IMG/VR virus record: IMGVR_UViG_2703718802_000011
DNA length: 48,734 bases
Reading direction: 5' to 3' (one strand)
Origin: a virus
Taxonomy: Duplodnaviria; Heunggongvirae; Uroviricota; Caudoviricetes
The notes under the pieces are model-generated. The model was not told where the DNA came from, did not search any database, and saw nothing but the letters and a program-made list of their open reading frames with translations. Shown in pieces: positions 8,673 to 39,349 of this stretch. Made by a program: the position numbers and the translations under genes. Within the stretch, counting starts at the first letter, position 1; each line of letters starts with the position of its first letter.

Positions 8673-9565
8673 TTTGATACCTCTTTGTTTACTGGGTTTA
8701 ATATCTGAGATGGTAGTTCTGAAAGATTCTCTTGTTCAAGTATATTTTGAAAGCTTTTATTCATCATTATGATGTTAAAAATCTCATTTATTATTAGTAG
8801 ATTGGTTTTTATAAATTTCGAGTTGTTATAAACAGATTTATGTTCAGCGATACTATTTTCATAAAGCTCAATCAACTCCTCTGCAGTCATCCTTTTTGAT
8901 GGTTTGTGATAATAAAATCCGGCTGCTTTTGCACCTTTATTCCCAACTGTTCTTTGATTTAGAATGTATTTTATCTTTATAATGTCCCGACTTTTTATTA
9001 ATTTTTTATCATATGCTTCGGTAAGAATATCTTGTGCTTCCTCAGTTTCACATCTTGCAAATTGCACTGCGAGATACAGAGGCAAATTGCCCCGTTCGAC
9101 TGCTGAGAGAAGTTTATGCTCTCCCTTATCAAGAAGCATATTAATACTGCTCACCCAGTTCGATGAATATCCAGTAATCTCACTTATTTCGGAGTCTGAA
9201 AGTCCTCTGATTTTCATGTCTTTAATCACCTGTAATAACTCATTAGAACGTGGTCTTCTCCTTGCAATGTTTTCAACTAAACTCATAACGTAAGCATCTT
9301 CTTCTGATACATCTCTTATAATTGCTGGAATAATAGTTTCACCTAATGCAACAAGAGCCTCTATTCTCCCTTGACCACAAATTAAAGCATATTTGAAATC
9401 GTCTTCATCAATAGCTCTTACGCTTATAGGCTTGCTTAATCCTCTTTTTTTTATGCTTTCCTTTATTTCTTCATGCACTACCTTATTTCTTGTTCGTGGG
9501 TTAAGAAATTTTATTTTTGCAATCTCAATTTGAATTATTGGGAATTCATTTTTTTCAGGCAGCAT
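8669..9565 (-). CDS. ParB-like partition/nuclease-domain protein with HTH
   Basis: 298 aa; 'ISVRAIDEDDFKYALICGQGRIEALVALGETIIPAII' (ParB box-like) followed by an HTH-like 'LSDSEISEITGYSSNWVSSI'; overlaps the recombinase 3' end. Confidence 0.5.
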   Translation of the reverse strand: MLPEKNEFPIIQIEIAKIKFLNPRTRNKVVHEEIKESIKKRGLSKPISVRAIDEDDFKYALICGQGRIEALVALGETIIPAIIRDVSEEDAYVMSLVENIARRRPRSNELLQVIKDMKIRGLSDSEISEITGYSSNWVSSINMLLDKGEHKLLSAVERGNLPLYLAVQFARCETEEAQDILTEAYDKKLIKSRDIIKIKYILNQRTVGNKGAKAAGFYYHKPSKRMTAEELIELYENSIAEHKSVYNNSKFIKTNLLIINEIFNIIMMNKSFQNILEQENLSELPSQILNPVNKEVSK

Positions 9566-11111
9566 ATAGTTCCCTCACTTTCATGCGAGTAATAATTTGT
9601 AGAAATTTATCAAGATTATCAAATCTATAGAGATCTAACCGAATGTTGTTTGTTTCCATCATACACATTTTACTATATTCGTTTTCAATCTTTGGTATGA
9701 TATAAAAATCAAGAGGTGAAATATTTTGTGAATTCATTCGTATAACAATTGTTATGTCTGCTTTCTGTGAGTTATCAAACCGGACTTTCCATCTAAGTTT
9801 ACCTGATTTCATATGTATGCATTTAGTAACAAGGACGGAAATTAAAAACTCATCATTGATGTAAAGCATTGGGTAATATTTATACTCGTCTATATGACAG
9901 TTACTTTTTAATATTTCGCCCTTAAAATCCTCAATTATCTCTGAGTAAAATGATCTTAGTGCTTCATTTATTTGGAGATAGCTGTAATCATGTTCTGGCT
10001 TATAACCAATCAAAGTATATGCTCTTAAAAGACCACCAAATCGGGTTCTATAAACAGAAGATGAAGGGCCTGTATCATCTTCATCAATGATAAAGCCTGA
10101 TAGTTTTCCATTAGATTCTAATTTTTCTTTTAGCTTTTCTAATAGATCTTCATTAGTCAAATGAATGGATCGGAGCTGAATTATTTCTTGAGCTTTATTA
10201 TATTTTTTCTTTGAAATAATTGGTTTATATGCCTTGTCACATCTAATCCATTCATGTTTGGGGTTTTTTACAAGCTTACTTTTTAGTTTAGATGAGGTTT
10301 TGTTATATATGTTGTTTCCAATATATTTTTCATTTGTCAAAATTTGATGTATTTTTGCACGAGTCCATGATGTTCCATTTTCTGCAGGTATGCTCTGTTC
10401 ATTTAATCTCTCAGCAATAATGAATTCTGGGACGTTACTATCTATAAAGAGATCATAGATTCTATTTACAATTTTTATTTCATTTTTTGGTCCCGGAATT
10501 AATATTACCCTATCTGTTTGAATACTCTTTCTTTTGCGGAAATTCAATATTTCTTTAGCTATGCCATTTTCGTCTACTAAAAGACGTCTCAGCCCATAAC
10601 CAGCCATACCGCCTTGATGATAACCAAGCTTTATTAAATTTACTTGCCCTATAAATACCTTTTCAGATAGATTCCTGCTGTGATATGCAGCACTTGATCT
10701 TTTTATATTCAGTATAACAGAGGACTCTAAAGGGAAATCTTTAGTGGGTATAGGTTCGGAACAATATATAAGATCTACACCATTTCTTTCAAATAGAAAG
10801 GAATAATATGCAGCTTCATCACTATTTTGAAAACGACCAAAACGGCTCACATCATAAAATAATACAGCCTGTATATCTATTTTCTTTTGTTCTACATCGC
10901 TAAGTAACTGCTGCAAAGAATGCCTGCCTACGATACTGACTCCGCTCTTACCTGCATCATCGTAGGTATAAGCGATTTCCATATTGTTCTTTTCAGCATA
11001 ATCTTTGATATATTCAGACTGATTATGTAAAGAATATTGCTGATGGTCGGTAGACATCCTCAAGTACTGTGCGACCCTAACTCTATGATTTTTTTCATTT
11101 CCGCTAGCCAT
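9555..11111 (-). CDS. Large serine recombinase
   Basis: N-terminal catalytic motifs 'YLRMSTDHQ' (Ser nucleophile), 'DDAGKSG', 'GRHSLQQLL', 'DVSRFGR', plus a large C-terminal domain. ATG at 11109-11111 (track ORF begins at TTG 11117). Confidence 0.7.
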   Translation of the reverse strand: MASGNEKNHRVRVAQYLRMSTDHQQYSLHNQSEYIKDYAEKNNMEIAYTYDDAGKSGVSIVGRHSLQQLLSDVEQKKIDIQAVLFYDVSRFGRFQNSDEAAYYSFLFERNGVDLIYCSEPIPTKDFPLESSVILNIKRSSAAYHSRNLSEKVFIGQVNLIKLGYHQGGMAGYGLRRLLVDENGIAKEILNFRKRKSIQTDRVILIPGPKNEIKIVNRIYDLFIDSNVPEFIIAERLNEQSIPAENGTSWTRAKIHQILTNEKYIGNNIYNKTSSKLKSKLVKNPKHEWIRCDKAYKPIISKKKYNKAQEIIQLRSIHLTNEDLLEKLKEKLESNGKLSGFIIDEDDTGPSSSVYRTRFGGLLRAYTLIGYKPEHDYSYLQINEALRSFYSEIIEDFKGEILKSNCHIDEYKYYPMLYINDEFLISVLVTKCIHMKSGKLRWKVRFDNSQKADITIVIRMNSQNISPLDFYIIPKIENEYSKMCMMETNNIRLDLYRFDNLDKFLQIITRMKVRELYAA

Positions 11112-11393
11112 GCACAAAACCTCATGGATGATTCAATACAATGTAGAGGATAAAATTGATCAAATTTTAACCGAATTCAACTGTTTTATCATTGATTAGA
11201 GCGAATTTGGTAGTTCTTCGAGGTGTATGATAATCGAGAAGAGATGTGAATTATTTAGCTGATATGACCGACAGCTTTCGTTATGTGGCCTCAAGGTACC
11301 CATTTGTAAATGGCTATGCTTAGTCCACATAGGTTAATGGTGTGATCATTAATTCTTCAAATAAATCAAGATAGTTAACCCATCATGGAAGAG

Positions 11394-12623
11394 TTATGCG
11401 GCAATAACTTTGTATTTTTGAGACGAAACATAGTCACTCCACCATTGCATGAGAACCACACGTTCTGTGAGATACTCTGCACGATTGTAGGCTGCAATTA
11501 TTTCATCTTTTTTCGAGTGGGCAAGGGCGGCTTCTAAGACATCAGTTCTAAACTTGCCACACTCCTCAGCCGCCGTTCTAGCGATTGATCGCATACCATG
11601 AGCTACAAGCTCACCTCCGAAGCCCATACGGATTATAGCCGCATTAGCTGTTTGTTCATGCATGTGATTGAGTGGAGCTTTGATACTGGGAAAAACCCAC
11701 TCTCTATGCCCGCTGATGGCTTTCATTGAATCCAAGACTCGCAAAGATTCTTTGCTCAGTGGAACTTTGTGAGGCTTCTTCATTTTCATAAACTCCGCCG
11801 GGATGTTCCACATGCTGGTTTCTATATCAATATCTGACCATCTTGTGCGAACAGCTTCACCAGGGCGAACCCATGTGAGAAGTTGCCACTCAATCAGTAG
11901 CCTTGTTTCTAAACGGATAGAAGCATTGTTTAGAGCAACCAGGAAGCGGGGGAGTTCGGAAGGGGGTAATGCTGGCATATTCTGTTTTTTTGGCTTGCTG
12001 AACCGTTGCCCCAGGTTGTCAGCCGGATTGAATTCTATGAGTTCTTCTGTTGCTGCATAGCGGAAAATTTCATTCAGGCGGGATATGACGCGGCGAAGTG
12101 TTTCAAGGACACCTCGTTTTTCTATGGGGTCTAAATGCTGTTTAAGCATTTTAGGGCGAATCTCCTTAATGGGGGTATCACCCAACGTTGGAAAGATATT
12201 TCTCTCTAGGCTTCGCCAGATGTCGTTAGCATGATCCTGGGAGATGCCTGACGTTTTGACTTTCTCATCAAGCCACTTCTTGGCTACTGCTTGAAATGTA
12301 TGTTCCGTTGCATCCTTAAGGGCATTGGCTTTGTGGGTGTTATGAACTTGTGGGTCTATACCATTTGCAAGCAACGACAAGTACTCATCACGTAAAGCTC
12401 GTGCCTTCGCAAGTGTAAGGTGAGGATAGGTTCCTAAGCTCACCTTAGTTCGCTTTTTGGTCACAGGCACTGCATATCTGAAATACCAATTTTTCTTTCC
12501 TCCCTTCGCTAAGGGGGCGATTCGCAGGAGCAAACCATCGCCGTCAAAAAGGTTAACCTCTTTCTCGGCAGGTTTGGTGCTTTTGATTTCAGTGTCAGTG
12601 AGCTTCTTAGCGATTTTTGCCAT
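11394..12623 (-). CDS. P4-type tyrosine integrase
   Basis: Starts at ATG 12621-12623 ('MAKIAKKLTDTEIK'); P4-like N-terminal arm-binding region and C-terminal catalytic region ending with a Tyr motif ('YNRAEYLTER'); adjacent to the ssrA 3'-end repeat. Confidence 0.8.
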   Translation of the reverse strand: MAKIAKKLTDTEIKSTKPAEKEVNLFDGDGLLLRIAPLAKGGKKNWYFRYAVPVTKKRTKVSLGTYPHLTLAKARALRDEYLSLLANGIDPQVHNTHKANALKDATEHTFQAVAKKWLDEKVKTSGISQDHANDIWRSLERNIFPTLGDTPIKEIRPKMLKQHLDPIEKRGVLETLRRVISRLNEIFRYAATEELIEFNPADNLGQRFSKPKKQNMPALPPSELPRFLVALNNASIRLETRLLIEWQLLTWVRPGEAVRTRWSDIDIETSMWNIPAEFMKMKKPHKVPLSKESLRVLDSMKAISGHREWVFPSIKAPLNHMHEQTANAAIIRMGFGGELVAHGMRSIARTAAEECGKFRTDVLEAALAHSKKDEIIAAYNRAEYLTERVVLMQWWSDYVSSQKYKVIAA

Positions 12624-12720
12624 GTTTGGGACCCTCATGTTTTGGACCCTTTGTGTTGGGTCCCAAAAAGGGTGCCATAACGAGTAGATTCTAGCAATTC
12701 TCGGTAGACTACTATAGACG

Positions 12721-12754
12721 TAAAAAAGCCCGCAAGGCTGGTTCCATGCGGGCT
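12721..12754 (-). terminator. Rho-independent terminator downstream of the displaced ssrA 3'-end copy
   Basis: Stem agcccgca/tgcgggct (12727-12734 / 12747-12754) followed on the minus strand by a T-run (complement of aaaaaa at 12722-12727). Confidence 0.55.
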
Positions 12755-12788
12755 TGATAGACTTCACTGAACTTCAATATATCAAAAA

Positions 12789-12834
12789 TTGGTGGAGCTG
12801 GCGGGAGTTGAACCCGCGTCCGAAATTCCTACAT
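12789..12834 (-). repeat. attR-type direct repeat: 46-bp copy of the ssrA 3' end
   Basis: 'ttggtggagctggcgggagttgaacccgcgtccgaaattcctacat' is identical to 47674-47719 and diverges immediately after. Confidence 0.85.
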
Positions 12835-12889
12835 ACTATTATTTAACTATCTAAATCATAGGTTTATTAATAGTATCAATGGGATAGTT

Positions 12890-13981
12890 TTAGACTGTGT
12901 TAGGCATTTTTACGTCGTTAAACTTCTTTGTCGCCATTTTGCCGCCACTGGAAGCTTTTATAACGTTAGGCTTTGTATATTTATCCCAGTGAGGAGAATA
13001 AATCGGACAATCAAGTGTAATATATTGATCAAAAAGAAATCTAAAGTCTGTTTCATATATGTAATTAATTATATGTTCATACGGACCTAATTCGGCACCA
13101 TAAATTATCGTTTTTATTTTTCTTGTTAGATATATACTTGCCTCAACGAATTCAAGAAAAGCATTTTCTTCGTGAGCAAAAGTAATAATACTGTATTCAT
13201 TGATCGATATTTTATATCTTGCCCGCATAATACTGTCGATACAGAGCTTTTCAAAAATCATGGCTGTTTTGTTAGAAACAGAATTTATTATTCTAAGGTA
13301 CTCCAGTGGTTTATTTTCTGGGGCCAGTTTCCTTGGTTTTAATGCGTTATCTATATCTCTAAGTAATACTTCTATTTCTTCTAGGAACTTGCTGCTTGGT
13401 TCGAAGTTAGATAGGCTGTGTGGGGCTGAGTTGGGGTATATTTTTTTATAGAGCAAGTAAGGATTTGTAATTTTAACTTGATCGGTAGTTGCTATTTTTT
13501 CATTATCAATTTCCTTGGACGAAATGATGCTTCCATCTTTGTTAGATAGATTTAAAATTGTGAAAGTAGATAAGTGGTTTATTTTTTCGATGAAGTTTTT
13601 TTCATGAGCCAAATATCTGTCAACGGCATTTTTGCTATCAACTGCTTGTATTTGTGCTTCGGTTTGAATTGTGCGATGAATATTGTTTACTATCGATGCG
13701 AGAGGAACGGAACTTGCTAGTAGCAATAAAGGAAACTTGCTGATCTCATAAAATCTAAAATATCCGTGAGCAGTGAGGACAGGTGTTTTTCCACTCCATG
13801 CAAAGTAACCAAAGTAAAAAAATGAAAAAACAGGAAGTAAAATCGATAACCAAAATAATTTTTGGCGGTATAGATTTCTTTTGTCTAACTTGTACCATCT
13901 TCTCCAAATGGAAATGATTAAAATTAATATAATTATTGTTGCATAAATATAAATGTATATATAGTCAGGATATGTTTTCAT
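12890..13981 (-). CDS. Membrane protein (N-terminal transmembrane helices), AT-rich moron translationally coupled to int
   Basis: 363 aa; hydrophobic N-terminus ('IIILILIISIW', 'LFWLSILLPVFSFFYFGYFAW'); ATG overlaps the int stop (ATGA at 13978-13981); strongly AT-rich compared with neighbouring phage genes. Confidence 0.5.
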   Translation of the reverse strand: MKTYPDYIYIYIYATIIILILIISIWRRWYKLDKRNLYRQKLFWLSILLPVFSFFYFGYFAWSGKTPVLTAHGYFRFYEISKFPLLLLASSVPLASIVNNIHRTIQTEAQIQAVDSKNAVDRYLAHEKNFIEKINHLSTFTILNLSNKDGSIISSKEIDNEKIATTDQVKITNPYLLYKKIYPNSAPHSLSNFEPSSKFLEEIEVLLRDIDNALKPRKLAPENKPLEYLRIINSVSNKTAMIFEKLCIDSIMRARYKISINEYSIITFAHEENAFLEFVEASIYLTRKIKTIIYGAELGPYEHIINYIYETDFRFLFDQYITLDCPIYSPHWDKYTKPNVIKASSGGKMATKKFNDVKMPNTV

Positions 13982-15000
13982 ACGTGATTTATACTATTTA
14001 GTGGGTTTTTGGTTACTGCATCTTCAAGATGTTCAGGGGAAAAATGTGCATATACCATGGTCATCTTGATATCTGAGTGACCCAATATATCTCTCAATAC
14101 TAGGATATTTCCGCCGTTCATCATAAAATGGCTGGCGAATGTATGGCGCAACACGTGAGTGCATTGGCCATCAGGTAGTTCGATACCGGCCCGTTTTACT
14201 GCACGCTCAAAGGCTTTTCTGCATGGTGTGAATAACTTCCCTCTGTTTTTGGGTAGCTCGTTGTACAGATCCTGAGATATCGGTACGGTGCGGTTTTTTT
14301 TACCCTTTGTCTTTGTATAGGTAATCCGGTATTTCGATAGTTGATGTCCCTGCAGGTTTTCAGCTTCACTCCAACGTGCACCAGTTGCTAGGCATATTTT
14401 TGCAATCATCAGCAGACTGGGGCTTTGAGAATCAGCACAGGCATCTAGCAGACGTTTAATTTCTTCCGGAGTCAAGAACGCCAGTTCACCTTCAGTAATT
14501 TTAAATGTTGGAAGCCCGGCAAGAGGGTTGGGGGCTGACCAGTGGCCCAGCTTTTTCAGTGTACCAAAAACCGATGATAGGTTGCGTTGTTCAAGATTTA
14601 CCGTGCGGGGCTTAACGGGCGACATTAGCGTGCCATCTTCATTTCGCACTTCACCTTTTAGCCGTGCTTCGCGGTATTTCGTAAAGTCACCGGCAGTCAG
14701 CTCTGAAGCGATGGGATCGCCTAGACCATTACAGATAATTCTAAGTTTCGCCATGAGGCGCTTGGGGTCTGCGAGTGTTTGACCATATAGGGAATACCAC
14801 AGCTCAATTAATTCTGATAGGCGTCTGCGATCTTCCTTTTCCCCCAACCATGGTTTTTTGTTCACTTCTTCCATTGTGAAGCTTTCAAAAGCAATGGCTT
14901 CGCCTTTTGTAGCAAATTGCTTACGTACGCGCTTGCCATTGCGTCCATTGGGATAGCACTCACACAACCATTTACCGTTTGGCTGTTTTCTGACAGTCAT
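13978..15000 (-). CDS. int: P2/186-type tyrosine integrase
   Basis: 340 aa (P2 Int is about 337), 'MTVRKQPNGKW...' N-terminus, C-terminal 'HVLRHTFASHFMMNGGNILVLRDILGHSDIKMTMVYAH' tyrosine-recombinase catalytic region. Confidence 0.85.
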   Translation of the reverse strand: MTVRKQPNGKWLCECYPNGRNGKRVRKQFATKGEAIAFESFTMEEVNKKPWLGEKEDRRRLSELIELWYSLYGQTLADPKRLMAKLRIICNGLGDPIASELTAGDFTKYREARLKGEVRNEDGTLMSPVKPRTVNLEQRNLSSVFGTLKKLGHWSAPNPLAGLPTFKITEGELAFLTPEEIKRLLDACADSQSPSLLMIAKICLATGARWSEAENLQGHQLSKYRITYTKTKGKKNRTVPISQDLYNELPKNRGKLFTPCRKAFERAVKRAGIELPDGQCTHVLRHTFASHFMMNGGNILVLRDILGHSDIKMTMVYAHFSPEHLEDAVTKNPLNSINHV

Positions 15001-15002
15001 GT

Positions 15003-15635
15003 TTAGATACTCTTTATTACTTTGACTGCGCGCCCAATAATTTCCACATCATCAGCAGAACACTCGAAAGACGCTTCATCTTGATTTACTACAATCTTAT
15101 TGCCGGGAATCCGCATGATTTTTGCAATAATAATCATTCCATCAATATTGATTAGCCAGAATCCATTGCTGACTTGTTTAACTGATTTATCGATGAGATA
15201 ACAATCAGTTGGGGTTTCTAAGAACATCGATTCTTCATAATGTGCAGGTAATATGCTGTGGTCTAGGAAAATATCTTCATCAATACTGAGTTTTCCATTC
15301 TCTAAGGTTCCTTTAGGAATAGATGGAGTTATGAGTTTGGATAGTGGTTTAATTGCTTGTTTGTTCTCATTATGAGATCTTTTCTCAGGCTCACATCCTC
15401 CTTTCATGCTTCCCTGGCCTGTAGCTAACCAAAGCAACGAAACACCGGTTTCTAGTGCGCACTGAATTATCCAGTCAGCAGGAAAACTGTCGCGTAACAC
15501 TCTGTTTGCCATAGTGCTTTTTGAGACATTCAGGTGCTCGCTTAATGCCTGCTTAGTTGTGAATCCATAAGCCTCAAGCAGCCTCTCAATAGCTGCCTTG
15601 CCTCCCGTATCGGAACCCATTCTGATGTTTAACAT
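15003..15635 (-). CDS. cI: CI-like immunity repressor (HTH)
   Basis: Divergent from apl/cII; HTH-like 'TKQALSEHLNVSKSTMANRVL'; likely start at ATG 15633-15635 with a GGAG RBS (track ORF extends to 15683); size about 210 aa, similar to 186 CI. Confidence 0.6.
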   Translation of the reverse strand: MLNIRMGSDTGGKAAIERLLEAYGFTTKQALSEHLNVSKSTMANRVLRDSFPADWIIQCALETGVSLLWLATGQGSMKGGCEPEKRSHNENKQAIKPLSKLITPSIPKGTLENGKLSIDEDIFLDHSILPAHYEESMFLETPTDCYLIDKSVKQVSNGFWLINIDGMIIIAKIMRIPGNKIVVNQDEASFECSADDVEIIGRAVKVIKSI

Positions 15636-15756
15636 TGGTAATCTCCATTTGACAATCTTGAGTCGAGATCGTAATGTCTTCATGTCTCTTGATGTGAGAG
15701 TTTAAGAGACGGACTAAAACGAACTAACACGCACACAAAGTAAGAGATACTGCACT

Positions 15757-23109: not shown

Positions 23110-24078
23110 TTATTTATAATATGCTGACTTCAAAACCACTCGTCTTTCAACCTGCTGTGATAGCATTACCGCGTTAGTCCAATCTTTTGGATACCTTATT
23201 TCTTCTATAACACGAATATAAGCACATACTTTATTTTTTCCCTCTCCTTTGGCATAAGTAACCTCTAGATTATTAAATTTCAATAAGTGCTCTCTTCTTT
23301 GGTAAGTAAAACAGCCGTAATCACGGACATCAGAAGAAGTAATAGCATGAGTTGAAGGAAACCGAACTAGTAAATTTCTCAAGTAGGGAATAATGTCCAA
23401 ACTCGTTGCTTTGTTTTCTTCTCTGCGACTCTTTCTGAACATATGTCTCCAACCCAGCCGTGTAAGCTCGATTTTCCCAAGCACCGGAGATGTGATTTCT
23501 TTCTGTTCAGAATAACGTTTTTTAACAAACGCTCGCCGATTATTAAGTAGTGAGTTTCTTCTTCTTACATGGATTCCTTTTGCTCCAGTTTCACCTGCAC
23601 GTACCATGGACATACAGCGAGCCAGGTCAAACCGTGTAGCCGGAGTGATTAAGTGATATTCTCCATAAGTTTGGTTTTTAAGGGTAGTGTTTGGATGTAT
23701 ATAGGCCCAAAATGCTTTACGATTAGTTCTGTCAACCCAAACGACACATATATGGTGAGTTGTCCTTTTGGCTGCTTTTTTTGCGGCCGAATTTAATACA
23801 AAACCTTTCTCTAATAAATGACCATAAGTTGCCCCTGATTTAACTTGCGACAATATAAGCATTCTTTCTTTTGATGCCCATGGATGTTCGAAGGATAATA
23901 TTAAATCTATTTTTGAATTGTCGTCTTCCCTGGAACCCCAGTGCCCCTCTCCTCTACAAGCAAGAATGAATTGACTCATTGCATAAGATTCGGCGTCACT
24001 GCCGTTAACTGAGTTAAACTGTCTTGTTTCTAGCACAGTTGGTATTGGTCGTGATGCAAGTAAACTGAAAGATCCCAC
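23110..24078 (-). CDS. Hypothetical cargo protein in the A-Q hotspot
   Basis: 322-aa ORF on the opposite strand to flanking phage genes, AT-rich, with no P2/186 counterpart at this position. Confidence 0.5.
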   Translation of the reverse strand: MGSFSLLASRPIPTVLETRQFNSVNGSDAESYAMSQFILACRGEGHWGSREDDNSKIDLILSFEHPWASKERMLILSQVKSGATYGHLLEKGFVLNSAAKKAAKRTTHHICVVWVDRTNRKAFWAYIHPNTTLKNQTYGEYHLITPATRFDLARCMSMVRAGETGAKGIHVRRRNSLLNNRRAFVKKRYSEQKEITSPVLGKIELTRLGWRHMFRKSRREENKATSLDIIPYLRNLLVRFPSTHAITSSDVRDYGCFTYQRREHLLKFNNLEVTYAKGEGKNKVCAYIRVIEEIRYPKDWTNAVMLSQQVERRVVLKSAYYK

Positions 24079-24686: not shown

Positions 24687-25601
24687 ATGCCATACCAATT
24701 GGTAGAGCTTAGCCCCGTAGCTAACGATCTTGAACAGTTAGGAACCAAAGAGAAGTTTTGGTTCTATTTCTCCGATGACACTGTAAATTTGCAGTTGTTT
24801 AAGTACTCTAGGCCAGGTACTGGCGAGCATTGGTCTGAAAAGTGTGCTGCTGAGTTATGTCATTTGCTTAACATTCCACATGCTAGCTATGATTTGGCGC
24901 GATACAATGGTCGATTCGGTGTGGTGACTCAGAATATCATTCCATCTGGTTTCCGGATGGTAATGGGAAATGAAGTGCTTCACAGTTCGACATTCGATTA
25001 TCCTGGGCCTTTACAAGCCGGGGAAAAGCCGGTAAGGGTCAGAGAACACACTGTCACAAGGGTATTGGGTTGTTTGGATAGGGAATCTATCAAGCCTCCT
25101 CCGAGTGTATATGATCTAACCGGGCTAAATGCAGCAGATGTATTTTGTGGATATTTGATGCTCGATGCACTTGTGAGTAATCAAGATCGCCATCATGAAA
25201 ATTGGGCGATCATGCTTAACAATGAAACTGGTGAGCAGTTTTTGTGTCCAACATACGATCATGCCGCTAGTTTAGGAAGGGAGATGTTAGATGATGAGCG
25301 TAACGAACGGCTTAATACTAAAGATAAAAATCGACAAATCCCATGTTTTGTAAGAAAAGCTCGCTCTGAGCTATTCAAAGCAAAAACTGATAAAAAGCCC
25401 TTGCTGACCGTTGAAGCATTTCAACATGCAGTTGAAGGGAGAGTTGCCGCTCGCGACCATTGGTTAGGTAAGTTGAGCGTTTTAACAGAAGATTCCATTA
25501 CAGATGTGTTTAACCAAGTGCCTTCATCGTGTATATCCGACAGTGCACGTAGATTTGCAACGTTAATGGTAATGGAAAATCGCAGAAGGTTACTAGAATG
25601 A
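24687..25601 (+). CDS. HipA-like (HipT-type) serine/threonine kinase domain protein
   Basis: 304 aa; 'LGTKEKFWF' (HipA P-loop-like) near the N-terminus, catalytic 'SNQDRHHENWA' (D-x-H-x2-N, about nt 25185) and 'CPTYDHAASLG' (HipA D332-region-like). Confidence 0.65.
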   Translation: MPYQLVELSPVANDLEQLGTKEKFWFYFSDDTVNLQLFKYSRPGTGEHWSEKCAAELCHLLNIPHASYDLARYNGRFGVVTQNIIPSGFRMVMGNEVLHSSTFDYPGPLQAGEKPVRVREHTVTRVLGCLDRESIKPPPSVYDLTGLNAADVFCGYLMLDALVSNQDRHHENWAIMLNNETGEQFLCPTYDHAASLGREMLDDERNERLNTKDKNRQIPCFVRKARSELFKAKTDKKPLLTVEAFQHAVEGRVAARDHWLGKLSVLTEDSITDVFNQVPSSCISDSARRFATLMVMENRRRLLE

Positions 25602-26338
25602 CTAATACAAACTCCGTTTACGTCGCATGGCAGGCACCAGATACCAGAGACTGGCATGTTGTTGGTAACTTGCAAGAGCGCAAATCGGGGTATGTTTTCA
25701 GGTATACCAAAGGTGCTCTTAAATCTACTAAATTTACAAAGTTTAGCGGCATGAGTGATGTTCGTGAAACTTATGTTTCGGAAGAATTGTTTCCTCTTTT
25801 TAAAAATCGCCTTTTATCACCGAGACGTCCAGAGTATCCGAGTTTCATTAAATGGCTTGGATTTGAAGAAGATAAGGTAAATCCTATCGATATTCTTGCT
25901 CGCTCGGGAGGCTTACGAAGCACTGATCAGCTGCAGATTTTCAAAAAAATTGATGTTGATTCTGATGGTAACTTTGAGCATTTTTTCTTCTTACATGGAC
26001 TTGGTTACTTAAATAGCTTAGCTAATGCTCGTGTATCTGAATTGAAACCGGGGCAAATTTTGCGTCTTTGCTTGGATCTTCAAAATGAATACGATGGGGA
26101 TGCTGTTGTCGTTCGTGCAGATAAACCAGCTGAAATCGTTGGTTACTGCCCTAGGTATTTAAGTAATGATATCAAGAAGATGTTATTGGATGATCCAAAA
26201 TCAATCACTTTAACGGTCGAAAAGATTAGCGATGATGCTCCTCATAACTATCGGTTATTATGTAAATTATCAGGAGTACTAAGCCAAGCCTGTCAATCGA
26301 CGCTGATTCCTCAGGATGAGTTTGAACCTATTGAGTAA
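25598..26338 (+). CDS. HipA N-terminal (HipS-like) domain fused to a HIRAN-like domain
   Basis: ATG overlaps the kinase stop (ATGA). N-terminus 'VVGNLQERKSGYVFRY...EELFPLFKNRLLSPRR...NPIDILARSGGLRS' resembles the HipA N-subdomain; C-terminus 'ILRLCLDLQNEYDGDAVVVRADKPAEIVGYCPRYLS' resembles the HIRAN consensus. Confidence 0.5.
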   Translation: MTNTNSVYVAWQAPDTRDWHVVGNLQERKSGYVFRYTKGALKSTKFTKFSGMSDVRETYVSEELFPLFKNRLLSPRRPEYPSFIKWLGFEEDKVNPIDILARSGGLRSTDQLQIFKKIDVDSDGNFEHFFFLHGLGYLNSLANARVSELKPGQILRLCLDLQNEYDGDAVVVRADKPAEIVGYCPRYLSNDIKKMLLDDPKSITLTVEKISDDAPHNYRLLCKLSGVLSQACQSTLIPQDEFEPIE

Positions 26339-37024: not shown

Positions 37025-37622
37025 TCTGCTGCCATCGGGGTCAACTTCACTGGAGCGCCGACTGGCGCAGACCTGTAGCGGGATTTCTGATCTGCAGGTG
37101 CCGCTGCGTGACTTGTGGAATCCGGCTACCTGCCCGGTCAGCTTCCTGCCTTATCTCGCCTGGGCGTTCTCTGTGGATCGCTGGGACGAAGGCTGGACAG
37201 AAAGCGTCAAGCGCCAGGTGGTGAAGGATGCTTTTTATATTCATCAGCATAAAGGGACCACCAGTGCCGTGCGGCGGGTGGTGGAGCCGTTCGGCTTTCT
37301 GATCCGCATTATTGAGTGGTGGCAGACCGGAGAGGCACCGGGCACGTTTCGTCTGGATATCGGCGTGCAGGACCAGGGCATCACTGAAGATACCTATCTG
37401 GAACTTGAGCGGCTGATAAGCGATGCCAAACCATGTAGCCGTCACATGATCGGCATGTCCATCAATCTGCAGACCAGCGGTCCGCATTGGGTGGGGGCCG
37501 CCAGCTATCTTGGCGAAGAAATCACGATCTATCCGTATATCAACGAAACAATTATTTCCGGCGGCACCGCGCATGAAGGTGGGGCGGTCCATGTTATTGA
37601 CACAATGAGAGTGAATCCATGA
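37017..37622 (+). CDS. I: Baseplate protein I
   Basis: 201 aa, overlaps the J stop; conserved position. Confidence 0.7.
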   Translation: MNSLLPSGSTSLERRLAQTCSGISDLQVPLRDLWNPATCPVSFLPYLAWAFSVDRWDEGWTESVKRQVVKDAFYIHQHKGTTSAVRRVVEPFGFLIRIIEWWQTGEAPGTFRLDIGVQDQGITEDTYLELERLISDAKPCSRHMIGMSINLQTSGPHWVGAASYLGEEITIYPYINETIISGGTAHEGGAVHVIDTMRVNP

Positions 37623-39349
37623 GCACAAAATTTTATACCCTGCTGACGGATATTGGCGCGGCGAAACTTGCCAGCGCCGCCGCGCTCGGTGTGCCTTTAA
37701 AAATTACCCATATGGCGGTCGGCGATGGCGGCGGAACATTGCCAACGCCGGACGCAAAGCAGACAGCATTGGTAAATGAGAAACGCCGGGCTGCGCTGAA
37801 TATGCTCTATATCGACCCGCAGAACAGCAGCCAGATTATTGCCGAACAGGTGATCCCAGAAAACGAGGGCGGTTGGTGGATACGTGAAGTGGGCCTGTTT
37901 GATGAGTCCGGGGCATTGATTGCCGTGGGCAACTGCCCGGAAAGCTATAAGCCACAACTGGCTGAAGGCAGCGGGCGCACCCAGACCGTGCGCATGGTGC
38001 TGATTACCAGCAGTACGGACAATATCACCCTGAAAATCGACCCTGCTGTCGTGCTGGCAACCCGCCATTATGTAGATCAACAAATAGAAATTCATGAGCA
38101 ATCGCGCCGCCATCCTTCTGCGTCTTTGACAGAAAAGGGATTTGTACGTCTGTATAGCGGTGTGGAAAGCAATGATGAAACAGTCGCTGCAACGCCAAAA
38201 GCAGTGAAAATAGCGATGGATAATGCCAGCGCCAGACTGGCAAAAGACCGCAATGGTTCTGATATTCCCAATCCGGCACTGTTTGTTCAGAATCTGGGAT
38301 TGAAAACGACTGTTGATAAAGCTGCATCAGCGATTCAGCCAGGAGATTATGGAATTGGCCTGGCTTATCTGAAAACCATGGGAACCAAATCGCAATTTTT
38401 TGCTTATGGTACAGCTGTCGGCTATCCAGAAGTGCCAACACATGGTGCTGGTTTCCAGGCCTGTTACAACGACAATCGACGTGCACAAATTTATGTCGCT
38501 AATGATGGCAAGATGTACTGTCGATTCAGCATGTTATCGAAAATTGCCGATGATGAAACACCGTGGAATCAGGTGTTCACCAGTGCACATTATCCAGAAG
38601 CATCAGTGAGTGTTAAAGGAATGGTGCAACTGGGGAACGATGTAAACAGCGTGTCAGAAAATGTTGCGGCGACATTGAAAGCGGTAAAAATTGCGATGGA
38701 CAACGCCAGTGCGAGACTGGCAAAGGACCGCAATGGTGCTGATATTCCTGACCCGACTTTGTTTATTCAGAATCTGGGACTTAAACCGACGGTTGATAAG
38801 GCTGAAAGTGCTCTGCAACAGGGAGCATACGGAATCGGTAGCAATAATAACTACGAAATGGGTGAGGTTTCACAGTTTCTTGCATATTCAGGTAATGCAG
38901 ATGAAGTGCCATCGAATGGTGCAGGTTTTCAGGCTGCGTATAACAAGAACAGACGCGCGCAGATTTTCATCACCGGAGCAGGGGAAATGTATCACCGTTT
39001 CAGCGGCTCTGATACGGTTAAAGACAATACAACACCATGGCGTCGGGGTGTTTGTGAAGATGAATTTTCATTTGGCAGCAATTATCACCGAATAACTGGC
39101 GGTGTGCTGAAGCAGTTTTTTAACAGTTATTTTTCCGGGGCAACTGGTGTGGTGAATAAAGAGTATCAGGTGAATTTTCCGACACCATTTGCCCGTCAGT
39201 GCTGGTACGTGATCCCCGTTTTCCGTTCGCCACACGGTGGGAGTGTTGAGGGTGTCGCCATTACAGCTATTACTGCAACTGGCTTTACTCTGAGCATCAC
39301 CGGAGATAACGGTGGATGGAATATTGGGTTTATTGCGGAGGGGGTCTGA
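37619..39349 (+). CDS. H: Tail fiber protein H, with an internal duplicated module
   Basis: 576 aa; conserved N-terminus; contains two diverged copies of an approximately 160-aa module. Confidence 0.8.
   Translation: MSTKFYTLLTDIGAAKLASAAALGVPLKITHMAVGDGGGTLPTPDAKQTALVNEKRRAALNMLYIDPQNSSQIIAEQVIPENEGGWWIREVGLFDESGALIAVGNCPESYKPQLAEGSGRTQTVRMVLITSSTDNITLKIDPAVVLATRHYVDQQIEIHEQSRRHPSASLTEKGFVRLYSGVESNDETVAATPKAVKIAMDNASARLAKDRNGSDIPNPALFVQNLGLKTTVDKAASAIQPGDYGIGLAYLKTMGTKSQFFAYGTAVGYPEVPTHGAGFQACYNDNRRAQIYVANDGKMYCRFSMLSKIADDETPWNQVFTSAHYPEASVSVKGMVQLGNDVNSVSENVAATLKAVKIAMDNASARLAKDRNGADIPDPTLFIQNLGLKPTVDKAESALQQGAYGIGSNNNYEMGEVSQFLAYSGNADEVPSNGAGFQAAYNKNRRAQIFITGAGEMYHRFSGSDTVKDNTTPWRRGVCEDEFSFGSNYHRITGGVLKQFFNSYFSGATGVVNKEYQVNFPTPFARQCWYVIPVFRSPHGGSVEGVAITAITATGFTLSITGDNGGWNIGFIAEGV
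38135..39060 (+). repeat. Internal tandem duplication (2 x about 480 nt, diverged) within tail fiber gene H
   Basis: Protein copies '..VAATPKAVKIAMDNASARLAKDRNGSDIPNPALFVQNLGLKTTVDKA..GAGFQACYNDNRRAQIYV' and '..VAATLKAVKIAMDNASARLAKDRNGADIPDPTLFIQNLGLKPTVDKA..GAGFQAAYNKNRRAQIFI' at a 160-aa offset. Confidence 0.75.

Follow-up and report, generated by a model that had tools for sequence, protein, structure and literature searches.

A membrane-protein gene between int and the att core of an ssrA-integrated Escherichia coli prophage: a candidate anti-phage gene in a cargo slot inside attP

The prophage and the gene adjacent to int

The DNA analysed here, a stretch of 48,734 nucleotides from the E. 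coli chromosome (IMG/VR record IMGVR_UViG_2703718802_000011) which is designated the window in the following, contains an E. coli prophage of about 35 kb that is integrated at ssrA and is of the Fels-2/186 type (Peduoviridae). The prophage is bounded by a 49-nt direct repeat, which corresponds to the 3' end of ssrA and the two copies of which are 98% identical, and the tmRNA gene itself is intact (Table 1). The DNA of the int-cI segment shows 82-91% identity to that of Fels-2, RE-2010, and Cartapus (Peduoviridae), Fels-2 being the closest type phage. An earlier note on this DNA, which was made from the sequence and its open reading frames, had used P2 as reference and had described the position downstream of int as empty there; Fels-2 indeed carries no gene at this place, yet the better comparator for this prophage should be the Fels-2/186-type phages and not P2 itself. 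Elsewhere in the prophage, a 576-aa ORF (37619-39349) is a probable tail-fibre gene and contains an internal 239-nt direct repeat (38120-38358 and 38600-38838; copies 70% identical), likely a duplicated segment.

Table 1 Features of the prophage ends and of the gene located between int and the att core (positions refer to the window; residues refer to the cargo protein)
Feature	Position	Strand	Basis or remark
First terminator-like hairpin 3' of the cargo gene	12727..12739	-	Displaced native ssrA terminator, beyond the att core; terminator scan
att core copy, int-proximal end	12789..12837		Displaced 3' end of ssrA; 49-nt direct repeat
Cargo gene, 363 aa, unnamed family (PHROG 17460)	12890..13981	-	ORF, ATGA overlap, homologues, dN/dS
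Paired TGGCGRCA repeats, candidate Int arm-type sites (P arm)	12929..12949		Within the 3' end of the ORF, encode SGGKMAT
Fast-diverging alpha/beta domain, predicted cytoplasmic, without known fold (residues 138-346)	12944..13570	-	
Juxtamembrane extension of TM3 (residues 102-137)	13571..13678	-	Continuous helix 91-137 in the model; alignments
Three predicted transmembrane helices, N terminus out/C terminus in (residues 1-101)	13679..13981	-	
Tyrosine integrase (Fels-2/186-type), overlaps the cargo start	13978..15000	-	Pfam Int_N and Phage_integrase
CI repressor, 186-type, first gene of the presumed cI-int-cargo unit	15003..15683	-	Pfam Phage_CI_repr and Phage_CI_C
Second copy of the paired repeats, P' arm	47608..47628		Exact 21-nt copy at the other prophage end
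att core copy at the other end	47674..47722		3' end of the intact ssrA gene (47675-48037)

The gene under study, termed cargo gene here, encodes a protein of 363 amino acids. In agreement with the earlier note, its start codon is located within an ATGA that also contains the stop codon of int, and the ORF ends 52 nt short of the 49-nt att core, so that it occupies the space between int and the attachment site. Its AT-richness, which had been noted as well, was also found: the G+C content is 32.3% (GC3 29%) compared to 45.7% for int, 40% for cI, and 51.7% for the rest of the prophage, and this base composition is foreign to the phage backbone. A stop-free run of 363 codons is expected by chance with a probability of about 3e-13 at this composition (hand calculation), and a chance origin of the ORF was therefore dismissed. 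Its coding status is confirmed by a dN/dS ratio of 0.10-0.17 (Nei-Gojobori), determined against two Citrobacter alleles (loci L020 and L023) with 83-86% amino acid identity, by 96 homologue clusters, and by 1054 profile hits (representatives clustered at 50% identity). The dN/dS values against these alleles are 0.04-0.13 for the N-terminal and 0.08-0.18 for the C-terminal module, and diversifying selection between close alleles was not detected, omega being below 0.2 in both modules. The cargo ORF is a real and constrained gene.

In phage 186, the lysogenic promoter pL drives the expression of cI and int. A terminator scan of the minus strand revealed no terminator-like site between the int stop codon and the end of the cargo ORF, and the number of promoter-like sites that might provide the ORF with a promoter of its own is not above chance (8 compared to an expectation of 10.4 in shuffled sequence). 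The ORF lacks a Shine-Dalgarno sequence, and in most loci the family gene starts within -16 to +5 nt of the int stop. In view of the transcription of cI and int from pL in phage 186, it can reasonably be inferred that the cargo gene would be cotranscribed with cI and int and hence be made in the lysogen. The earlier proposal of a moron in the int/cI unit is well supported, whereas cotranscription is deduced from the lack of a terminator and of a promoter above chance. On the phage side of the second att core, a G+C-rich hairpin followed by a T run (AGGGGTTACGTGAAAGCGTAGCCCCTTTTTCTT) is located at about 47633-47666 on the minus strand and is identical in Cartapus. This hairpin would replace the native ssrA terminator in the lysogen and would end the cI-int-cargo transcript in the free phage.

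Further candidate defence loci are present in the window. In the GpA-portal hotspot of this prophage, a two-gene PADLOC candidate designated PDC-M03 is present (24687-25601 and 25598-26338, both on the plus strand), with a HipA-like gene A (E=2e-122) and a gene B encoding a HIRAN domain (E=3e-93); a 322-aa ORF beside it (23110-24078, minus strand) gave no hits. A second island covers positions 1-12788 of the window and is arranged in tandem at the displaced ssrA end. It comprises a P4-type integrase (11394-12767), a large serine recombinase (9555-11117), three ParB/RepB-like ORFs (7777-9565), an ankyrin-repeat protein (610-1563), and an overlapping three-gene operon for a protein with an NA-iREase2 domain (3703-4764), a 351-aa protein without assignment (4764-5819), and a RelA/SpoT-like nucleotidyltransferase (5819-6724). 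The operon resembles a defence system of a type not described so far.

A cargo slot inside attP

The 3' end of the cargo ORF contains a 21-nt element which reads AGTGGCGGCAAAATGGCGACA on the coding strand and is composed of two TGGCGRCA units placed 11 nt apart. An exact copy is present at the other end of the prophage, where a single unit in inverted orientation is additionally found at 47579-47586. The spacing between repeats and core is fixed, with 46 nt on the far side and about 95 nt on the int side, the latter value holding for all related loci regardless of the cargo. In Cartapus, in which attP is contiguous, the order is cargo stop, 6 nt, repeat pair, about 95 nt, core, hairpin terminator, second repeat pair, and inverted unit (repeat pairs at 1036-1054 and 1242-1260 of locus L025), and joining the two ends of the window reconstructs an attP with this order. 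In Fels-2, the repeat pair (119-137 of locus L026) is located 4 nt from the int stop with no cargo in between. By analogy to the attP architecture of P2 and of lambda-type phages, the TGGCGRCA repeats are probably Int arm-type sites. Because the repeats directly follow int in the cargo-free Fels-2, the cargo slot, which is located inside attP, is bounded exactly by the int stop and the P-arm repeats.

The overlap between cargo frames and arm repeats has left traces at the DNA and the protein level. In comparisons with the Citrobacter alleles, dS is 0-0.05 for the last 17 codons and 0.4-1.0 for the rest of the gene, and such a near-zero value at the 3' end is a signature of constraint on the DNA itself. 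Cargo ORFs of unrelated families also read into the int-side repeat pair, and this reading into fixed repeats accounts for a recurring GG/GD-x-(M/L)-A-(T/A) tail ("GG-K-MAT") on C termini that are otherwise dissimilar.

The content of the slot varies between related phages and genomes. About 201 of 5426 complete E. coli genomes possess an int gene of this type, but only three of them contain the allele of the window with its 363-aa gene, whereas five others harbour an allele with about 73% identity at the DNA level. The slot of FORC_081 is occupied by a 343-aa relative, which is 38% identical over the N-terminal half only, and that of strain 120899 by an unrelated 222-aa gene. Cartapus and RE-2010 carry an unrelated 401-aa gene, Klebsiella and Citrobacter FP75 carry a relative of the cargo gene and a 397-aa gene in tandem, the latter being 49% identical to the Cartapus gene, and in Fels-2 the slot is empty. 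Hence, the slot is modular and variable, while int, the arm repeats, and the core are conserved, and the designation of the gene as a moron is borne out by its absence from Fels-2 and its replacement by unrelated genes in similar prophages. The second cargo family of about 400 aa is represented at 7184-8377 in loci L005-L008, 8093-9286 in L015, 1267-2472 in L025, and 204-1409 in L027; its members stand alone in Cartapus and RE-2010 and are located downstream of the gene of the three-helix family in Klebsiella and Citrobacter. The label "putative RES protein", which was given to this protein by the depositor of the Cartapus sequence, was not reproduced by Pfam or PADLOC.

The protein family and its predicted structure

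The cargo protein, which is labelled hypothetical protein in RefSeq, matches PHROG 17460 with E=3.5e-45 over residues 7-286, a family for which no function is annotated. A word-indexed search yielded 96 homologue clusters from Citrobacter, Enterobacter, Klebsiella, Salmonella, Cronobacter, Pectobacterium, Yersinia, Erwinia, Dickeya, and others, every one of which is labelled "hypothetical" and none of which has a Pfam domain. When a profile of 95 members was searched against 1.84 billion sequences, 1054 representatives (clustered at 50% identity) were obtained at E<=1e-3 and 507 at E<=1e-10, and the family extends across the Enterobacterales and into Pseudomonas. Since only two hits were found by tblastn in 50,697 phage records, the family is far bigger than phage records suggest.

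Searches for known domains were negative throughout. Scans of the ORF and of distant relatives with Pfam, NCBIfam, and PADLOC gave only noise (DUF6814, E=0.12; PA2928_fam, E=0.13), PADLOC-DB v2.0.0 contained no family with E<=1 for either the ORF or the distant relative P0096, ten distant family members had no Pfam domain, and the Pfam families SLATT_1-6, DUF4231, and S_4TM/S_2TM did not match the cargo protein at E<=1. A sequence profile search of the PDB retrieved only designed helical bundles or BAG domains (E>=0.02), and a search with a profile of the N-terminal module for fusions to annotated domains returned short fragments only. In the literature, nothing was found on the RefSeq accessions of the family or on its PHROG identifier. 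Homology to a phage core protein, which the earlier note had regarded as incompatible with its reading, was absent according to Pfam, PADLOC, PHROG, and the tblastn search of phage records.

Sequence conservation divides the protein into two parts, with a mean pairwise identity of 59% for residues 27-135 compared to 21% for residues 136-346. Nine columns are invariant across 95 relatives (W62, F77, P84, H102, R103, T104, Q106, Q110, and K128), and the core motif of the family alignment is ISKFPLLLLASSVPLASIVNNIHRTIQTExQI. The residues H102, R103, T104, Q106, and Q110, which follow the third hydrophobic segment, are all present in the protein of the window, and the juxtamembrane invariant polar residues found in alignments of 42 and 95 sequences comprise H102, R103, T104, Q106, Q110, K117, D121, H126, and K128.

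The strongly hydrophobic N-terminal segments described in the earlier note correspond to three stretches (residues 8-26, 42-62, and 80-101), and the prediction of structure and topology that it had proposed gave three transmembrane helices. The AlphaFold2 model, for which an alignment of the family served as input, has a pLDDT of 85.3 and a pTM of 0.69. It shows helices at residues 6-26 and 41-62, a broken helix at 71-89 that runs on as one long helix (91-137), an alpha/beta domain (139-335), and a disordered tail (347-363). Foldseek searches against PDB and BFVD revealed no fold match to the model. The mean number of lysine and arginine residues in 95 relatives is 0.76 for the N-terminal tail, 3.65 for loop 1, 1.56 for loop 2, and 3.84 for the 21 residues past the third helix (TM3). 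Based on this distribution and the positive-inside rule, the N terminus is predicted to be outside and the C terminus inside, and the variable C-terminal domain would be cytoplasmic. With its two prolines and three serines, TM3 is only marginal as a transmembrane helix; should it fail to cross the membrane, the variable domain would lie in the periplasm, and a role in blocking phage entry or at the cell surface would be favoured.

In 11 of 15 distinct contexts, the family gene immediately follows an intact integrase gene of this type, and the remaining four are all mobile-element or defence settings. In Kosakonia, a truncated copy of this integrase precedes the relative and PifA comes after it, whereas the most distant relative (P0096) is located between GpA and ogr/portal in a P2-like contig of 33 kb. 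A Yersinia relative (P0074) follows a CBASS cyclase and a 4TM effector, the latter being a separate gene, and in Dickeya (P0094) the cargo gene lies among conjugation genes of an ICE. The order int, cargo, gpD in a contig of 33.9 kb (P0040) indicates that the family gene is part of the packaged phage genome. A scan of genome representatives yielded only six loci, which are too few for enrichment statistics. The GpA-portal interval is the main defence hotspot of P2 (PMC9122126; PMC13586616), and the int-att interval of P2-like phages is a minor one, which accounts for 3% of the recognisable P2 defence systems (NAR 2026 survey, PMC13586616). In Erwinia aphidicola (locus L012, 7254-9562), an AriA/AriB-like pair (PARIS-type) and a PemK toxin are encoded just past the att site of a prophage with a family member, and the ssrA locus there is also a defence island.

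Candidate function and relation to known systems

As best explanation, we consider that the cargo gene encodes a lysogen-expressed membrane protein which acts against phages as a single gene, with a sensing C-terminal domain and a membrane output that leads to abortive infection; we assign a probability of about 0.5 to this reading. The chance that the gene has an anti-phage function of any kind is about even or slightly better. According to the proposed mechanism, the gene, an autonomous accessory module that occupies the attP slot from the int stop to the P-arm repeats, would be transcribed from the lysogenic promoter together with cI and int and would be translated by coupling to int. The three helices would anchor the protein in the inner membrane with the N terminus outside, the conserved membrane and juxtamembrane module with its HRTIQTE..Q helix would represent the output part, and the fast-diverging cytoplasmic alpha/beta domain would represent the specificity or sensor part. 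Sensing of a phage component by the cytoplasmic domain may then cause the membrane module to disturb the membrane, and the resulting abortive infection would protect the lysogen from other phages.

The interpretation as a sensor coupled to a membrane output is based on the conserved membrane module, the fast-evolving domain, the autonomy of the single gene, its carriage by phages, an ICE, and defence islands, and its occurrence in two P2 hotspots. The context favours anti-phage defence over surface conversion, and abortive infection by membrane perturbation appears more likely than a block of entry; the main reasons for this preference are the predicted cytoplasmic position of the variable domain and the presence of relatives in settings other than phages. 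Counting against an anti-phage role are the lack of detectable homology to known defence, exclusion, or abortive-infection proteins, the purifying rather than positive selection seen between close alleles, and the marginal nature of TM3. The other occupants of the slot are also without a function identified by Pfam or PADLOC, so that guilt by association within the slot is weak. More specifically, and at odds somewhat below even, the gene may represent a new and widespread single-gene anti-phage system, in which an undescribed effector composed of three transmembrane helices and the HRTIQTE helix is combined with a hypervariable cytoplasmic phage sensor of novel fold and is carried as a cassette in the attP slot between int and the arm sites, with ORFs that consist in part of recombination-site DNA.

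Among the alternatives, superinfection exclusion deserves most attention, i.e. a block of the injection of incoming genomes at the inner membrane which the cell survives, as brought about by the Sie proteins of lysogeny modules. The predicted location in the inner membrane and the place of the gene in the cI-int unit, the classical place of sie genes such as sie2009 of Tuc2009, ltp of TP-J34, and sieA of P22, are in accord with it, and the marginal TM3 (according to a hydrophobicity estimate) would permit a periplasmic C-terminal domain. We regard it as unlikely, however, since the bias of lysine and arginine in the 95 relatives puts the variable domain in the cytoplasm and thus away from the injection apparatus, the known Sie proteins are much smaller, no Sie family of PHROG or Pfam was matched, and relatives near CBASS and PifA and in an ICE are in settings typical of general defence genes. 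Still less probable is a factor for lysogenic conversion or host fitness that has no connection with phages and serves, for example, in envelope modification, stress tolerance, or colonisation. The absence of defence homology in PADLOC would suit such a factor, and an AT-rich, presumably lysogen-expressed membrane moron next to att resembles gtr and oac, the conversion genes of other temperate phages, but signatures of a glycosyltransferase, an acyltransferase, or another enzyme were not detected by Pfam, NCBIfam, or fold comparison, only three transmembrane helices are present, a cytoplasmic location is predicted for the variable domain, and one relative resides in the main P2 defence hotspot and others in defence islands.

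The overlap with the int stop and the arm-type repeat in the 3' end of the gene could point to a function in integration or excision or to a selfish addiction toxin. Both were rejected as very improbable, because the slot is empty in Fels-2 and filled with unrelated genes in RE-2010, Cartapus, and other prophages with the same int and att, because relatives occur at places remote from int, namely the GpA-portal hotspot and an ICE, and because an antitoxin-like partner is missing, the att core following 52 nt past the stop; moreover, the arm repeat is a constant component of attP which cargo ORFs merely enter. Finally, the missing Shine-Dalgarno sequence, the lack of annotation, and the RefSeq label as hypothetical protein might suggest a spurious or decaying ORF in AT-rich filler DNA. 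The likelihood of this is close to nil, as it is refuted by the length of the stop-free frame, the dN/dS values, the nine invariant columns in 95 relatives, the 1054 profile hits (clustered at 50% identity), and the confident AlphaFold2 model.

If the abortive-infection reading or another anti-phage role applies, the family would constitute an unannotated type of defence gene with a new fold and at least 1054 clusters at 50% identity which is missed by Pfam, NCBIfam, and PADLOC, the latter being the one defence-gene library searched, and it would offer a two-module protein, composed of a conserved membrane part and an exchangeable cytoplasmic part, in which the coupling of sensing to a membrane effector could be studied. 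Irrespective of function, the int-att hotspot is resolved here inside attP to the nucleotide, with modules that are stacked or exchanged and reading frames that run into the repeats. Prophage morons in P2-type hotspots as such are expected by now.

By position, the ORF belongs to the class of P2-like hotspot cargo, of which old, tin, and fun/Z are examples (Rousset et al. 2022; PMC9122126), and it has no named protein family beyond PHROG 17460. Like these genes, it is an accessory gene that varies between strains and has a fixed place between conserved core genes; it differs from them in that neither sequence nor fold relates it to old, tin, fun, or any model of PADLOC, in that its slot is defined to the nucleotide, and in that the cargo ORF overlaps an attP arm site. 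Cartapus gp33 and RE-2010 gp01 (401 aa) occupy the same slot from the int stop to the arm repeats but are unrelated non-membrane proteins. With the Sie proteins (lactococcal Sie2009, Ltp of Streptococcus thermophilus, and SieA of P22), the product shares the nature of a prophage membrane protein which is encoded next to int and repressor and is presumably expressed in the lysogen, whereas it is much larger, has a variable domain of about 210 residues (138-346) that is predicted to be cytoplasmic, shows no homology to them, and has relatives outside phages. The Gtr and Oac serotype-conversion genes differ from the ORF, which has no glycosyl- or acyltransferase domain, only three transmembrane helices, and no fold match. 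Membrane effectors of abortive infection (CBASS 4TM/2TM, SLATT, and RexB-type) likewise combine a conserved small transmembrane module, the presumed output, with a more variable soluble part and are likewise associated with mobile elements and defence islands. In contrast to these effectors, the cargo protein is a single polypeptide without signalling partner and without a match to SLATT or S_4TM, and its invariant HRTIQTE..Q juxtamembrane helix, to which no counterpart was found, sets it apart.
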